From positions 1 to 38,429 of IMG/VR virus record IMGVR_UViG_3300045988_155207: a stretch of 38,429 nt of DNA, one strand, 5' to 3'. The stretch is from a virus. Position numbers and translations under genes: made by a program. Below the pieces are notes generated by a model, which had not been told where the DNA came from, made no database searches, and was given only the letters and a program-made list of their open reading frames with translations. Shown piece after piece: positions 6,853 through 34,416 of the stretch. Every line of letters starts with the position of its first letter. Position 1 is the stretch's first letter.

Positions 6853-8575
6853 GGGCGTTAGAATAAATTACGGCGTTATTGACCAAACATTGCAGGACGA
6901 CACTATTACTTACGAAACAAGCTCAGACAGCGTGTACTCAGAATTGCACAACACAACGCAAAACGCCGTAGATTTTGATAAAATTGCGTACCTTGAAAAG
7001 GACTATTTTTTGCTTGACGGCACTTTTATCTTTCCAGACACAAACGGTAGCTATGACGTTGGGTGGGAAAGTGCAAGCATTGCGGACGTTAATGGCAATA
7101 TAAACGATTATATCGAGTATGTGTTCAATAATTTACACGACAGTTACGGTATACAGATAATTTTCCCGACAGATTGCGCGGCAGATACATTTACTGTTGA
7201 ATATTTTAACGGCAATAGCCTTGTCGGCGCTAATACAGTTACGGGCAATACCGCTGTAAACTATGTAAACTACGACGTGCGTATGCAGTGGGACAGAGTG
7301 CGCATTACGTTCACAAAGGTCAAGCCGCAACAACGCGCGCGGTTGTTGCAGATTGTATTCGGAATAAACGAATTATACGATGAGGATATGCTAATAAGCG
7401 TTTCAGCGAGCAGAACAACGGACTTGACGGGTGACTATGATGACAGCGGTGAATTTTCGTTTCAGTATTTTAACAACGGACGGTTTAACGTGCAGAGTAT
7501 TAACGACTTGCCTATCGGAATGCAGGAGGGTTTAAAAGTCGTTATTTATATAAAAAAGCGCGGGAGCGACGAGTATGTCATGTTCGGAAATTATTACAGC
7601 GAGAACACGAGCGTTGAAGAAAACGGCAATGTTATAACGGTCAGCGGCTATGATGAATTGTACGGATTGGGTGAAAGCGTATATCGCAACGGTATTGTTT
7701 ACACTGACGGCAGAAGTTTATACGACTGGGCGGAAGAGGTAGCAGAGGACGCGGGCATTACGCTTGCGGTTGACGACGCATTTAAGGATATTATCTCAAC
7801 GGGCTATATAACCGAAGTCCCGCACAGAGAGGCGTTACGCCTTATAGCGGAAGCAGGCAACGGCATACTCGTTATCGACGCGAACGGCAACATTGCACTC
7901 AAAAAACATACGCCGACGGAAAAAGGCGCATTGACTGCGGACGATATTGTCGAGGGCAGTTATTCCGTTGAGAATAGCGATAAACACATCGGTATAAATG
8001 TAACTAAATACACGTTCAGCGCGGCAAGTGCAGAGCAGGAACTTGGACATTTAGAAGAAATTGGGCTTACGGTAGAGCCGCAGGAAATAGAGATTGTTTA
8101 CAGCGAATATCCCGCCGTTATATCCACGATACAGGTATTCGTCGATACTACAAGTTCGGCGCAAATAACTTCAACAAAAATTTATTCTGACCGTTGCGTT
8201 ATAACATTGACAGGTACGGCGGGAGATACCACGTTCGTTACCGTTACGGGCAGACCGTATAACCGCGCTACTACAAAGGTTACACGCGGCAGTACGGCAA
8301 AAAATATAAAAGCAATCGAAAGCAATTATTTAATTACAGGCAGTATAGCAACAAGCGTCGCTAATTATCAATATGAACGCGTTGTTAATAAATATACGCA
8401 TAAGGCGGAGATAGTCAGCGAAACAGACTTTGACCTTGGCGACCACATAGAAATAGATACTGAAAACAGCACAGTATCAACGCAATCTACGGGCGACGGG
8501 CAATACATTACCAGCGTTGCGTTCAATATTTCTTATGACGAAAATGAGACTACAATAGAGGCATTAGATGAATAA
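6842..8575 (+). CDS. Tail-tip/baseplate protein (Tal-like, putative)
   Basis: 577 aa, in the position of the tail-associated protein after tape measure and Dit. Confidence 0.45.
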   Translation: MIIEGVRINYGVIDQTLQDDTITYETSSDSVYSELHNTTQNAVDFDKIAYLEKDYFLLDGTFIFPDTNGSYDVGWESASIADVNGNINDYIEYVFNNLHDSYGIQIIFPTDCAADTFTVEYFNGNSLVGANTVTGNTAVNYVNYDVRMQWDRVRITFTKVKPQQRARLLQIVFGINELYDEDMLISVSASRTTDLTGDYDDSGEFSFQYFNNGRFNVQSINDLPIGMQEGLKVVIYIKKRGSDEYVMFGNYYSENTSVEENGNVITVSGYDELYGLGESVYRNGIVYTDGRSLYDWAEEVAEDAGITLAVDDAFKDIISTGYITEVPHREALRLIAEAGNGILVIDANGNIALKKHTPTEKGALTADDIVEGSYSVENSDKHIGINVTKYTFSAASAEQELGHLEEIGLTVEPQEIEIVYSEYPAVISTIQVFVDTTSSAQITSTKIYSDRCVITLTGTAGDTTFVTVTGRPYNRATTKVTRGSTAKNIKAIESNYLITGSIATSVANYQYERVVNKYTHKAEIVSETDFDLGDHIEIDTENSTVSTQSTGDGQYITSVAFNISYDENETTIEALDE

Positions 8576-31692: not shown

Positions 31693-32277
31693 ATGGAACA
31701 GTTCAACATTGAATGGAAAGATATTGCAAGCGTAAAACCTTACGCCCGCAACGCAAAGAAGCACGATGAAACGCAGATTGCAAACGTTGCCGAGAGTATC
31801 AAGCAATTCGGCTGGCAGCAGCCTATCGTATGTGACGCGGACGGCATTATCATTATCGGGCATTGCCGCCTTTTAGCGGCGAAAAAACTCGGGTTGAAGA
31901 AAGTACCCGTCAAGACTGCGGATAACCTTTCCGACGAACAGGTCAAAAAGCTGCGCGCGCTCGATAACAAGCTGAACGAGAGCGACTGGGACTTTGACTT
32001 GCTCGCCGATGATATAGGCGAACTTGACTTTTCGGGCTTTGATATTGACTGGGGAATTGTTTCTCCTGATGATTACGGTGAAAGTTTTGAATTGCCTGAC
32101 GGCGATAAAAGCGAAATATGCCAAATGACATTTACTCTTCATGAGAGGCAAGCCGAATTGATAAAAGAGGCAATGAAAAACGTAAAAGATGATATAACGG
32201 AAACTTTTGGTAATACGAATAGCAACGGAAATGCTCTTTATGAGGTGGTTCGGCAATGGGCAGAGCAAAGGAAATAA
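31693..32277 (+). CDS. ParB N-terminal (ParB-like nuclease) domain protein
   Basis: 194 aa. ...KPYARNAKKHDETQIANVAESIKQFGWQQPIVCDADGIIIIGHCRLLAAKKLG... Confidence 0.7.
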   Translation: MEQFNIEWKDIASVKPYARNAKKHDETQIANVAESIKQFGWQQPIVCDADGIIIIGHCRLLAAKKLGLKKVPVKTADNLSDEQVKKLRALDNKLNESDWDFDLLADDIGELDFSGFDIDWGIVSPDDYGESFELPDGDKSEICQMTFTLHERQAELIKEAMKNVKDDITETFGNTNSNGNALYEVVRQWAEQRK

Positions 32278-33002
32278 TTGTAAAGGTAATTCCTCGAAAT
32301 TTAGCAAATGACTTTATTGTAAAACATCATTATTCTCATAAATATATGCAATCAAGTCAAGTACATTTCGGAGTTTTTTGGGGAAATAATTTACATGGTG
32401 TTATGCAATTTGGAAGCTGTATTGACAGAAAAAAAATGCAAACTCTTGTAAGTGATTGCGAATGGACTTCTTTTTTAGAATTAAATCGTATGGCGTTTGA
32501 TGACGTTTTGCCCCCAAATAGTGAAAGCAGGGCAATTTCGATTGCTATTAAATTATTAAAAAAATATGCTCCTCAAGTAAAATGGATTATTTCTTTTGCA
32601 GACGGGTGTTCCTGTGGAGATGGCACAATTTATCGTGCAAGCGGATTTGTTTTGACGGATATAAAAAAGAATTTTAATCTTTGTGAATTGCCAAATGGAG
32701 AAAAAATACATAAATTGACGCTTGAAAATAATCCAAATCAGCCAAGAAAAGAGTTAAATGGTAAAAGTTATTATGAAATTACAAGTGGAAAATATTCTTT
32801 TAAAAAATATGTTCAAGTAGCCAACGCAAAAATACTTGAAGGGTATCAATTCAGATACATTTATTTTATCGATAAATCATATAAAAAGCGGCTGACGGTG
32901 CCTATTATTCCGTTTTCCGAAATAGACAAAATCGGCGCGGGAATGTATAAGGGAGAAAAAGTAAGCCGAGAAGAACGGCACAATAAAAAGCACTCCGAAT
33001 AA
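32256..33002 (+). CDS. Mom-like (GNAT-fold) DNA-modification protein (putative)
   Basis: 248 aa, very AT-rich. N-terminal KHHYSHK...FGVFW.NNLHGVMQFGS and WIISFADGCSCGDGTIYRASGF resemble the Mom adenine-carbamoylmethylation family. This is a recollection of a pattern, not verified. Confidence 0.45.
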   Translation: MGRAKEIIVKVIPRNLANDFIVKHHYSHKYMQSSQVHFGVFWGNNLHGVMQFGSCIDRKKMQTLVSDCEWTSFLELNRMAFDDVLPPNSESRAISIAIKLLKKYAPQVKWIISFADGCSCGDGTIYRASGFVLTDIKKNFNLCELPNGEKIHKLTLENNPNQPRKELNGKSYYEITSGKYSFKKYVQVANAKILEGYQFRYIYFIDKSYKKRLTVPIIPFSEIDKIGAGMYKGEKVSREERHNKKHSE

Positions 33003-33014
33003 ACGAAGTGCTTT
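32981..33014 (-). terminator. Minus-strand rho-independent terminator (8-bp stem AAAGCACT/AGTGCTTT, then UUUUUAUUG in the minus-strand transcript)
   Basis: The U-run exists only in the minus orientation. Sits immediately 3' of the tRNA-like gene. The stop codon of the Mom-like gene lies in the loop. Confidence 0.5.
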
Positions 33015-33017
33015 GCG

Positions 33018-33092
33018 TGGAGCGTACAGGTCGGAGTTGAACCGCCTTAAACTTACAGGAATGCAAGCGCATTAACGATATGCTATGTACGC
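33018..33092 (-). ncRNA. tRNA-like RNA gene (cloverleaf-compatible, CCA encoded; atypical anticodon and T arms)
   Basis: On the minus strand there is a perfect 7-bp acceptor stem GCGTACA/TGTACGC, a discriminator U and an encoded CCA. U8 and A14 are present. The D-stem is GCAT/ATGC. The anticodon stem is CTTGC/GTAAG with a 6-nt loop ATTCCT. The T-stem is GGCGG/CCG(A)CC with a bulged A, and the T-loop is TTCAACT. The element is 75 nt long. Confidence 0.45.
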
Positions 33093-33105
33093 ATATGATA
33101 TTATA

Positions 33106-33134
33106 ATTATAGCGCAAAATTTTTATTTTGTCAA
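33106..33134 (-). promoter_or_regulatory. Minus-strand consensus promoter (TTGACA = rc of 33129-33134; 17-bp spacer; TATAAT = rc of 33106-33111)
   Basis: Perfect hexamers on the minus strand. The predicted transcription start is about 6 nt upstream of the tRNA-like 5' end. Confidence 0.6.
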
Positions 33135-33152: not shown

Positions 33153-33626
33153 TTGGCGCGTAAACAGGACGAAAACCTTATTCCGAATAGTCAAAGAAGT
33201 CCGAGCGAAGTTCGAGCAAACAGCTCAAAAGGCGGAATAAAAAGCGGACAGGTACGGCGGCAGAAAAAAACCGTTGCCGAATATCTCCGAAAATGGGCGG
33301 ACGGAGAGGTCAGCGAAAAGAATAAAAAGGCGTTAGAAGCGTTGGGTTTGAGTGAAGAAGCCACGAACCGAACGCTTCTCGTCGTGCCGTTGATAAAAAA
33401 GGCAAGCAGCGGCGACACAAAAGCCCTGCAAATGGCGTTGGAGCTTTTGGGCGAAGATAAGAAGAAAGAACTCGAAATTAAGAAGCTACGGCGCGAAATT
33501 GAGTTGTTAAAAGCCGAAACGCAAAAGTTGCGTATGATGACGGGCGAGGACAGGGAGGTCGAGGACTTAACCGCGCTCGGGGATATGTTGCGGGTAGATA
33601 GTGAGGACGACGATGAACATATTTAA
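33153..33626 (+). CDS. Terminase small subunit (putative)
   Basis: 157 aa with TTG start and AGAGGTGG RBS. Basic N-terminus and coiled-coil C-terminus. Positioned immediately upstream of the packaging genes. Confidence 0.45.
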   Translation: MARKQDENLIPNSQRSPSEVRANSSKGGIKSGQVRRQKKTVAEYLRKWADGEVSEKNKKALEALGLSEEATNRTLLVVPLIKKASSGDTKALQMALELLGEDKKKELEIKKLRREIELLKAETQKLRMMTGEDREVEDLTALGDMLRVDSEDDDEHI

Positions 33627-34416
33627 TTTATCATTTGGAAAAGATAGTATGGCGACACTTATTCTTGCCGCCGAGCAAGGCATACCGATTGACCGCGTTA
33701 TGTACTGCGAAATTAAGTTTAATGACGAAATAAGCGGCGAGCACCCTCTTATGGCGGAATGGATTCCGACCGCAGAAAGGCGGCTGAAAGAGTTATTCGG
33801 CATAACGGTTGACCACGCGTATAGCGGAGTGAGCTTTGAGGAGCAATTTTACAAGGTCAAACAAAAAGGTAATCACGCAGGGGATAGGTATGGCTTTCCG
33901 TATGTTGTAGGCGCGTGGTGTAATGACAGGTTAAAGCTGGGTGCGATAAGCAAATATCAGGCGCAGTTTGGCAATAACAGAATCACACAATTCGTCGGAA
34001 TTGCCTATGACGAGCCTATCCGTTGGGAACGTATGAAGAAGAAAGAAACGGAAAAATGCAAATACCGCTCTCTGCTCGTCGAGCAAAACCTTACTGAACA
34101 AGACGCGTTTGAGATATGCAAGCGTTATGACCTATTATCGCCGATATACAGCGTAGACGGAATATATCGCGGCGGTTGCTGGTTTTGCCCGAAACAATGT
34201 CTTGCCGATTTGCATAGCCTGTGGAAGAATTATCCTAAACTATGGCAAAAATTATGCGATATTGAGCCTGAAAGCCATAATACTTTTAAGCCGAATTGTA
34301 CACTTGCAGAATTACAAGCACGGTTTGAGAATGGATATATCCCAAAACGTAAAAAAGTAAAACAAAATTTTATACAAACAAGTATGTTTGACTATGAAAA
34401 AAACACAGACGATTGA
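33613..34416 (+). CDS. PAPS-reductase-like PP-loop protein, paralog 2
   Basis: ATG at 33613. Same SFGKDS and GGCWFCPKQC motifs, and a nearly identical N-terminal 60 aa to paralog 1. Confidence 0.65.
   Translation: MNIFNLSFGKDSMATLILAAEQGIPIDRVMYCEIKFNDEISGEHPLMAEWIPTAERRLKELFGITVDHAYSGVSFEEQFYKVKQKGNHAGDRYGFPYVVGAWCNDRLKLGAISKYQAQFGNNRITQFVGIAYDEPIRWERMKKKETEKCKYRSLLVEQNLTEQDAFEICKRYDLLSPIYSVDGIYRGGCWFCPKQCLADLHSLWKNYPKLWQKLCDIEPESHNTFKPNCTLAELQARFENGYIPKRKKVKQNFIQTSMFDYEKNTDD

Follow-up and report, generated by a model that had tools for sequence, protein, structure and literature searches.

A family of tRNA-Gly-like RNAs encoded beside Mom genes in phages: putative glycyl carriers for DNA modification

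A stretch of viral DNA of 38,429 nucleotides (nt) (IMG/VR virus record IMGVR_UViG_3300045988_155207, positions 1 to 38,429; the whole stretch is called the window below) carries on its minus strand, at positions 33018-33092, a 75-nt cloverleaf RNA that resembles tRNA-Gly and converges with a neighbouring gene of the Mom family. We think it probable that this RNA is a phage-encoded, non-decoding derivative of tRNA-Gly and that its dedicated role is to carry glycyl groups for the neighbouring Mom. In phage Mu, Mom is a GNAT-fold enzyme that moves glycine from Gly-tRNA-Gly to the N6 of adenine in double-stranded DNA (PMC13219725; Silva et al., Nat Commun 2026; preprint bioRxiv 10.1101/2023.03.24.534169). 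An earlier reading of the window, made from the letters of the DNA alone (the original prediction), had described a self-contained minus-strand tRNA-like gene at this position, using the Mom gene as a landmark only; the glycine identity of the RNA and its partnership with Mom go beyond it.

The window RNA, its promoter and its terminator

The transcription unit and its immediate neighbours are as follows.

33106-33134, minus strand: sigma-70 consensus promoter, with TTGACA at 33134-33129, a 17-nt spacer and TATAAT at 33111-33106 (promoter scan, 12/12)
33093-33099, minus strand: predicted short 5' leader of about 6-7 nt, ending ...AU (deduced from the 13 nt that separate the -10 hexamer from the start of the RNA)
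33018-33092, minus strand: tRNA-Gly-like RNA of 75 nt, a cloverleaf (sequence, minimum-free-energy fold, covariance model R1, family covariation, feature table)
32982-33014, minus strand: intrinsic terminator, consisting of an 11-pair hairpin (33014-32987) and a U-run (terminator scan, fold)
32256-33002, plus strand: Mom-family GNAT gene of 248 amino acids, the proposed partner of the RNA (Pfam PF25680, homology to PDB 8BV8)
33153-33626, next downstream of the Mom gene: open reading frame named terS in the original prediction, without a Pfam match

The acceptor stem of the window RNA is a perfect helix of 7 base pairs (bp) (GCGTACA/TGTACGC, 33092-33086 with 33028-33022), and U8 and A14 are both present. 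The D arm (33083-33069) combines a 4-bp stem, GCAT/ATGC, with a loop, ATCGTTA, that lacks GG. At the anticodon position stands a hairpin (33067-33052) with a 5-bp stem and a 6-nt loop, AUUCCU (33062-33057), in which CC occupies 33059-33058. The T arm (33046-33029) has a stem, GGCGG/CCGACC, that leaves A33031 unpaired, and a canonical T loop, UUCAACU; the discriminator U73 follows the acceptor stem at 33021, and CCA is encoded at 33020-33018. The original prediction had listed the 7-bp acceptor stem, the CCA, U8 and A14, the 6-nt loop, the unpaired T-stem A and the GG-less D loop, and all of them are present where it had placed them. Thermodynamic folding, which it had proposed as a check, recovered the cloverleaf as the minimum-free-energy structure of the RNA body (77 nt folded, -23.8 kcal/mol, z=-3.1), with a 6-nt loop able to close into a UUCC tetraloop. 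Folding of the predicted full transcript gives a leader, a cloverleaf and a terminator (-39 kcal/mol, z=-5.5; 0/200 shuffles equal), and the leader, 33093-33099, is unpaired in this fold.

The TTGACA-17-TATAAT promoter reading towards the RNA was confirmed as a 12/12 match at 33134-33106, and places the predicted transcription start near 33099 on the minus strand. The hairpin and U-run claimed as a terminator were likewise recovered (33014-32982); the terminator overlaps the final codons of the convergent Mom gene, and the 3' end of the RNA (33018) lies 15 nt past the Mom stop codon (33002). Allowing at most one mismatch, TTGACA-N17-TATAAT sites occur 11 times in the window against 0.28 expected. 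Seven of the sites are perfect, and the promoter of the RNA is the sole perfect one on the minus strand; the long ATG-initiated open reading frames of the window are all on the plus strand, as had been claimed. The six other perfect promoters are on the gene (plus) strand, at 171, 8748, 16972, 21004, 26137 and 30397, and textbook sigma-70 promoters appear to punctuate the phage genome.

Covariation and glycine identity across the RNA family

To describe the family we used a covariance model, R1, built on 16 sequences, the window RNA among them. The window RNA, as one of the training sequences, scores 65.5 bits with R1 over its full length (E=7e-12). An alignment of the 16 elements was made with MAFFT without the use of structure, and the anticodon arm fell in inconsistent registers in it. 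In this alignment the share of paired cells is 92.3%, and sliding the partners lowers it to 37-50%; 13 of the 22 pairs have changed on both sides, and 0/500 shuffles reach the observed score. When 74 distinct sequences were aligned to R1, 94.7% of cells were paired (36-48% when slid), and 20 of the 22 pairs showed compensatory changes. All four helices of the cloverleaf covary in both alignments. Pairs 1:72 and 2:71 are invariant as G1:C72 and C2:G71 (73/73 sequences), while positions 32 and 38 covary as a Watson-Crick pair among the 74. The conservation of stems with compensatory changes in related phages, which the original prediction had named as a thing to look for, is thus present.

Feature counts come from an anchor-based, register-aware parse of 72 distinct Mom-linked elements.

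5' GCG: 68/72
U73: 71/72
CC of CCA encoded: 47/72
CC within the anticodon-position loop: 72/72
Loop length of 6, 7 or 8 nt: 10, 38 and 24 of 72
Loop ends (32:38) closable as C-G: 56/72
Canonical 7-nt loop with U33 and a purine at 37: 14/72
T-stem 3' strand with an extra nucleotide: 57/72
GG in the D loop: 31/72

The T-stem 3' strand CCGACC of the window RNA is the most frequent type (22/72). U33 is absent from most family members, some lack the D arm, and the loop core ATTCCT is common to the window and to locus L007. Loops of the form N-UUCC-N (ATTCCA, CTTCCA and similar) are also common in a second sample, which was selected by a T-arm motif and is described below; the same rules recur there, with glycine determinants kept and decoding features lost. 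The oddities that had been taken as possible signs of decay therefore recur across the family and are conserved family traits. The N-UUCC-N loop of 6 nt, the T-stem nucleotide left unpaired and a D loop without GG are all kept, alongside compensatory changes, and we therefore reject the suggestion of a decaying tRNA. The alternative proposal of a non-decoding tRNA mimic gains support from the loop sequences, which are 6-8 nt long and mostly without U33. Some contigs carry two copies each with different loops: L122 has tRNA-Gly-like copies at 1088-1162 and 2539-2613, and L126 has copies at 1030-1105 and 2483-2558, one on either side of the Mom gene.

In bacteria, glycyl-tRNA synthetase (GlyRS) recognizes its tRNA by G1:C72, C2:G71, C35, C36 and U73 (PMC10464925). 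The window RNA begins with GCG and ends with CGC followed by U, so that G1:C72, C2:G71 and U73 are all present, and its CC (33059-33058) sits in the 6-nt loop at the anticodon position, as the putative counterpart of C35 and C36. Because the shared GCG start, U discriminator and CC loop match the GlyRS determinants, the element appears to be a derivative of tRNA-Gly(UCC), and the family seems to have kept its glycine identity while relaxing the features needed for decoding. Compared with a canonical elongator tRNA, the window RNA retains the cloverleaf and the CCA but has no 7-nt loop with U33 and a purine at 37; the elbow residues G18 and G19 are absent from its D loop, and its T loop is canonical. 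The affinity of EF-Tu for the tRNA body is set almost wholly by the first three T-stem pairs (PMC7826273), and it is in this part of the T stem that the extra nucleotide of the phage RNAs falls.

Standard detectors, ARAGORN and Rfam being among the checks that the original prediction had proposed, fail on the element: ARAGORN reported 0 tRNAs in the window, Rfam gave 0 matches there at its gathering threshold, and the Rfam tRNA model RF00005 had no match even at E<=10 (351 nt searched). Among the relatives, nearly all were missed by ARAGORN, which called a handful as tRNA-Gly, and the Rfam tRNA model called zero family members. A BLAST search with the 211-nt region and its 8.4-kb context against 50,697 cultured phage records gave no match. 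Taken together with the loci described below, the sequences point to an RNA family that is widespread and previously unannotated.

The best sub-threshold Rfam match to the window RNA was RF02435, SpF41 (23.5 bits, E=0.15; gathering score 52). SpF41 resembles the window RNA in being a tRNA-shaped RNA with a terminator, encoded just upstream of terS in Streptococcus phages and satellite phages. In phiNJ2 (L247 3001-3105) and Javan115 (L248 3001-3103) it closely follows a DUF4417 gene and a small hypothetical open reading frame. We rejected SpF41 as the identity of the window RNA: the match is below the gathering score, and SpF41 loci reach only 22 bits with R1, lack the GCG start and the CC loop, and stand beside DUF4417 rather than Mom. 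SpF41 is an analogous but distinct tRNA-like element.

Linkage of the RNA to Mom genes

The protein encoded next to the window RNA matches the Pfam Mom family PF25680 with 187.2 bits (cut-off 27.1) and the Mu Mom crystal structure 8BV8 (8bv8_A) at E=5.4e-27. In a 12-sequence alignment, the equivalents of Mu H58, Y59, R111, S124, D149 and Y159 are identical and invariant, while the seventh named active-site residue, R151, is Cys or Thr in the clade of Moms linked to the RNA. In this clade the Mu motif DERCG, which holds the essential R151, has become D[AG][CT][SQ]CGDG, the N-terminal extension of about 36 amino acids found in Mu is missing (by comparison with L043, Mu, and L042, JD024), and there is a conserved C-terminal tail, LTVPxIPFSxIDxLGAGMYKG. 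Judging from the sequences, these differences may reflect an altered mode of tRNA binding.

The association of RNA and enzyme was followed in both directions. Starting from the protein, we found the RNA in 22 of the 25 informative viral loci with relatives of the window Mom, and in 10 of 11 loci from prophages or metagenome-assembled genomes. The latter are mostly of Clostridia type (Christensenellales, Ruminococcaceae, unclassified Clostridia/Bacillota), and one, whose Mom is 39% identical, belongs to Verrucomicrobiota. A profile scan of metagenome contigs returned at least 557 Mom relatives; the best 80, being those most similar to the window Mom, yielded 73 informative loci, and in 47 of these the RNA follows Mom within 300 nt, at a median gap of 14 nt. 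The 7.8% of sequence directly downstream of Mom holds 46 of the 51 RNA matches (P=2e-45). Starting from the RNA, an 18-nt T-arm motif alone pulled out 80 viral loci, and a Mom homolog is present in 73 of these; in 4 of the 7 loci without one, the motif is at the contig end. In 27 of the motif-selected loci the RNA lies directly upstream of distant Moms (26-47% identical, Mu- and JD024-like ones included). The layout thus varies, with the RNA downstream, upstream, inverted or duplicated, and proximity to Mom is kept. These data indicate that a large fraction of Mom phages, whose hosts are gut bacteria of Clostridia type, Verrucomicrobiota and Gammaproteobacteria, encode a putative glycine carrier of their own.

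Not every Mom gene has such a neighbour. A filter-free search with R1 of the 24 metagenome Mom loci without the RNA, and of L037 and L021, gave one weak extra match only, so these absences are real within the sequence covered. No such RNA was found within about 4 kb of Mom in Mu, JD024, pAEv1818, Lactococcus PMBT69 or Enterococcus Stockyards. The partnership of Mom and RNA is therefore frequent but facultative. A search for relatives by terS found two loci only, neither of which has Mom or the RNA. In L027, the nearest relative by packaging genes (terL 95% and terS 88% identical), homology to the window resumes just past the promoter of the RNA; since L027 lacks Mom and RNA together, the pair behaves as one cassette.

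The RNA is opposite to the gene strand in the window, as originally described, but this antisense position proved incidental to the family, in which 40 loci are co-directional and 7 inverted. Counting the window, the RNA runs against Mom in 8 loci. Among the 7 others, the promoters of L047, whose Mom is 77% identical, and of L048 match 12/12, and that of L072 matches 11/12. From the end of the -10 hexamer to the start of the RNA there are 12-14 nt in L047, L048 and L072, and 13 nt in the window. A hairpin and T-run overlapping the Mom 3' end follow the RNA in all 7 other inverted loci, and the terminator hairpins of L047 and L048 are homologous to that of the window, with compensatory changes. 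The recurrence of promoter, spacing and terminator in L047, L048 and L072 supports the self-contained minus-strand unit of the original prediction. An inverted RNA with its own promoter and terminator would act in trans and would not be part of the mom mRNA. Co-directional loci have a structure of their own just upstream of the RNA: in L006 (3745-3769), L003 (about 2262-2298), L005, L009 and L017, a GC-rich terminator-like hairpin and T-run lie over the Mom stop, and the hairpin and T-run end 3 nt before the RNA 5' end (...TTTTTTCAT, then GCG).

The neighbourhood of Mom shows further variation. Two Mom-like genes in tandem, which have diverged and show 56-63% identity with the window Mom, occur in L001 (3001-4480), L002 (1923-3429), L008 (12-1509), L064 (169-1634) and L082 (83-1469), and in such phages the RNA, where present, comes after the second copy. 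In L021 (1528-2252) and L024 (3-715), tblastn matches the Mom-like gene as two segments that overlap, perhaps because of a frameshift or because it is a pseudogene; both loci also lack the RNA, which fits co-loss, in what is effectively one lineage. A gene with a ParB-N domain and a PAPS-reductase-like gene recur around Mom and the RNA in varying order (in the window at 31693-32277 and 33601-34416; also in L003, L005, L006 and L041), which suggests a larger DNA-modification or late-gene module.

One member comes from a cultured phage. Psychrobacter phage vB_PmaS_Y8A (OQ059336.1; L041 5662-5804, about 7786-7928) has two tandem copies with a reduced D arm, which lie in an unannotated gap of 165 nt between the Mom-like gene and terS. 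The Y8A genome paper, which used tRNAscan-SE, reports no tRNA genes. Cultured Y8A is a ready experimental system.

Proposed function, competing explanations and significance

If the window RNA is a glycyl carrier for Mom, host RNA polymerase would transcribe it from its own consensus promoter, RNase P would cut off the leader of about 6 nt, and 3' trimming of the terminator trailer would bare the encoded CCA. Host GlyRS would then glycylate the RNA by way of G1:C72, C2:G71, U73 and the CC of the loop, which would stand at positions 35-36 of the anticodon. The loop, unfit for the ribosome, and the extra nucleotide in the part of the T stem that concerns EF-Tu would keep the glycylated RNA outside translation and free for Mom. 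Mom would finally put the glycyl group on the N6 of adenine in phage double-stranded DNA, where N6-carbamoylmethyl-adenine would form and block restriction enzymes; the product of Mu Mom does rearrange to N6-carbamoylmethyl-adenine (PMC13219725). The original prediction had offered a decoy, a primer or a target for a host or phage enzyme as possible roles. The target of a phage enzyme comes close, as the RNA is likely to be a co-substrate of Mom, whereas the others do not.

Several observations weigh against a dedicated glycyl carrier. Mu Mom accepts all three E. coli tRNA-Gly isoacceptors, though not Gly-tRNA-Ala, and its authors think that mainly the acceptor end is read (PMC13219725); with all host isoacceptors accepted, Mom has no strict need of a tRNA of its own. 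In keeping with this, some 30% of the Mom loci in the window clade have no RNA in the sequence covered. Many loci come from the same phage lineages and are nearly identical, so that independent events are fewer than the counts suggest. On the side of charging, the GlyRS of L. plantarum needs an overall L-shape and favours a purine at 4 and a pyrimidine at 69 (PMC10464925), and the window RNA, with U4:A69 and a GG-less D loop, disagrees with this preference; members without a D arm exist as well. According to the fold, a 6-nt loop that collapses to the UUCC tetraloop would put the display of the two Cs to GlyRS in question. The family also grades into ordinary tRNA-Gly(UCC): canonical tRNA-Gly scores about 56 bits with R1. 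That any family member is expressed, processed, charged, kept away from EF-Tu and the ribosome, and used by Mom is deduced from sequence.

The likeness to canonical tRNA-Gly bears on a first alternative, that the RNA is an ordinary if slightly odd tRNA-Gly(UCC) decoding GGA and GGG codons, with Mom next to it by coincidence. Cloverleaf, CCA, glycine determinants and UCC triplet are all there, 14 of the 72 elements have a canonical anticodon loop, ARAGORN calls a few of them tRNA-Gly, and canonical tRNA-Gly genes score well with R1. Against this, the window loop has 6 nt and those of the family 6, 7 or 8, mostly without U33 and mostly closed by the covarying 32:38 pair; there are members without a D arm, and the Rfam tRNA model misses all. 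A two-way tie to one enzyme gene (P=2e-45; 73/80 in the reverse direction) would not be expected of a tRNA kept for codon usage, and we regard this explanation as very unlikely. Still harder to credit is a decaying tRNA pseudogene, an integration-site remnant or a cis-acting structure that processes or stabilizes the mom mRNA. Phages commonly integrate at tRNA genes, the element has non-canonical features, and in most relatives it is co-directional with mom and abuts its stop codon. Yet four helices are kept by compensatory changes beside Moms that are 26-77% identical and spread over several phyla, and the supposed defects are themselves conserved. The 8 inverted loci with their own promoter and terminator exclude a cis role on the mom mRNA. 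A remnant of integration agrees poorly with a late-gene site beside terS and with a full cloverleaf rather than a 3' fragment; no integrase is among the genes of the surrounding region examined, which include ParB-like, Mom, terS and terL. An attP or integration remnant, a cis mRNA element and a frameshift-suppressor tRNA were accordingly rejected, on the grounds of covariation, inverted self-contained copies and the variability of loop length among close relatives.

Two further explanations accept a function in trans. The RNA could bind or regulate Mom without donating glycine, as an inhibitor or antitoxin, a scaffold or a specificity factor. Its tight linkage to Mom would fit such a role, as would the C-terminal tail and missing R151 of the clade, which suggest a changed interaction with RNA; expression of Mu mom is described as toxic and heavily regulated (PMC3378877). 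A regulator, however, would have no need to keep the distal CC (72/72) together with G1:C72, C2:G71 and U73, which is the exact GlyRS set, and the CCA end, encoded or addable, is kept too; we consider this role unlikely. Alternatively, the RNA could act as a decoy or sponge that draws off a factor directed at tRNA-Gly, charged or uncharged, such as a host anticodon nuclease or a GNAT toxin, or as an effector of host GlyRS regulation, for example through the T-box; it would then guard or manipulate the host pool of glycine tRNA, which Mom depletes. An RNA that has glycine identity but does not decode would suit this, as would independent transcription in trans from the predicted promoter to the predicted terminator, and the Mom paper mentions possible harm from co-opting charged tRNA (PMC13219725). 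But no defence or toxin gene is consistently near, Mom being the sole conserved neighbour; the T-box would not account for members in phages of Gammaproteobacteria and Verrucomicrobiota; and bait for an anticodon nuclease would be expected to retain a canonical anticodon loop. This, too, seems improbable. Both the regulator and the decoy explain the conservation of the exact GlyRS set less well than does a glycyl carrier for Mom.

By its workings, the nearest known system to the proposed glycyl carrier would be the non-proteogenic (NP) tRNA-Gly of staphylococci with the Fem transferases, and by enzymology it would be Mu Mom with host tRNA-Gly. NP1-NP3 of S. aureus and S. epidermidis are charged by GlyRS and donate glycine to FmhB, FemA and FemB, and those of S. 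aureus bind EF-Tu and the ribosome poorly (PMC7826273). The likeness is that of an extra RNA of tRNA-Gly(UCC) type which gives glycine to a GNAT-fold aminoacyl-transferase outside translation and so divides the pool of Gly-tRNA, as the window RNA would do. The NP tRNA-Gly are chromosomal, confined to staphylococci and biochemically proven, and their acceptor is a peptidoglycan precursor (PMC7826273); the phage RNAs, by contrast, are encoded by viruses and travel as a cassette with the enzyme gene, and their acceptor would be DNA. The phage RNAs also differ in their 6-8-nt loops, their frequent unpaired T-stem nucleotide and the absence of a D arm in some, so that the analogy is functional only. 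With Mu Mom, the window protein shares the enzyme family, six of seven active-site residues and, as proposed here, the same chemistry, but Mu encodes no tRNA and uses any of three host isoacceptors. Ordinary phage tRNAs, such as the canonical clusters in L014 and L016, are likewise phage-borne cloverleaves, often with an encoded CCA and presumably processed by RNase P. They decode, are found by ARAGORN, tRNAscan-SE or Rfam, are usually clustered and are tied to no single enzyme gene, whereas the family described here is missed by those detectors and linked in both directions to Mom.

Mom is the first enzyme shown to modify DNA with a charged tRNA, and scavenging of Gly-tRNA-Gly from the host has been assumed (PMC13219725). 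In the literature searched, which included the main text of the Mom paper and its preprint, we came upon no account of tRNA genes that are encoded together with Mom. A wider reading, which we put forward tentatively and with more doubt than confidence, is that many phages share a portable two-part cassette for DNA hypermodification. It would comprise Mom and an orthogonal carrier RNA stripped of its translation features, keeping only what GlyRS needs and so chargeable across bacterial hosts; the Mom clade that has lost R151 and gained a C-terminal tail would possibly be specialized for the RNA or dependent on it.

If the window RNA and its relatives are glycyl carriers for Mom, they would be the first virus-encoded non-proteogenic tRNAs and the first dedicated RNA co-substrates of a DNA-modifying enzyme. 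The concept of the non-proteogenic tRNA would then reach from one bacterial genus to viruses, and would show a virus dodging the competition with EF-Tu and translation for aminoacyl-tRNA. The family would offer natural minimal substrates, with 6-8-nt loops and in some cases no D arm, for dissecting recognition by GlyRS and by Mom, and the compact, orthogonal pair of RNA and enzyme could serve in engineered DNA modification. It would also reveal a class of tRNA-like genes that standard annotation has overlooked, as in Y8A.

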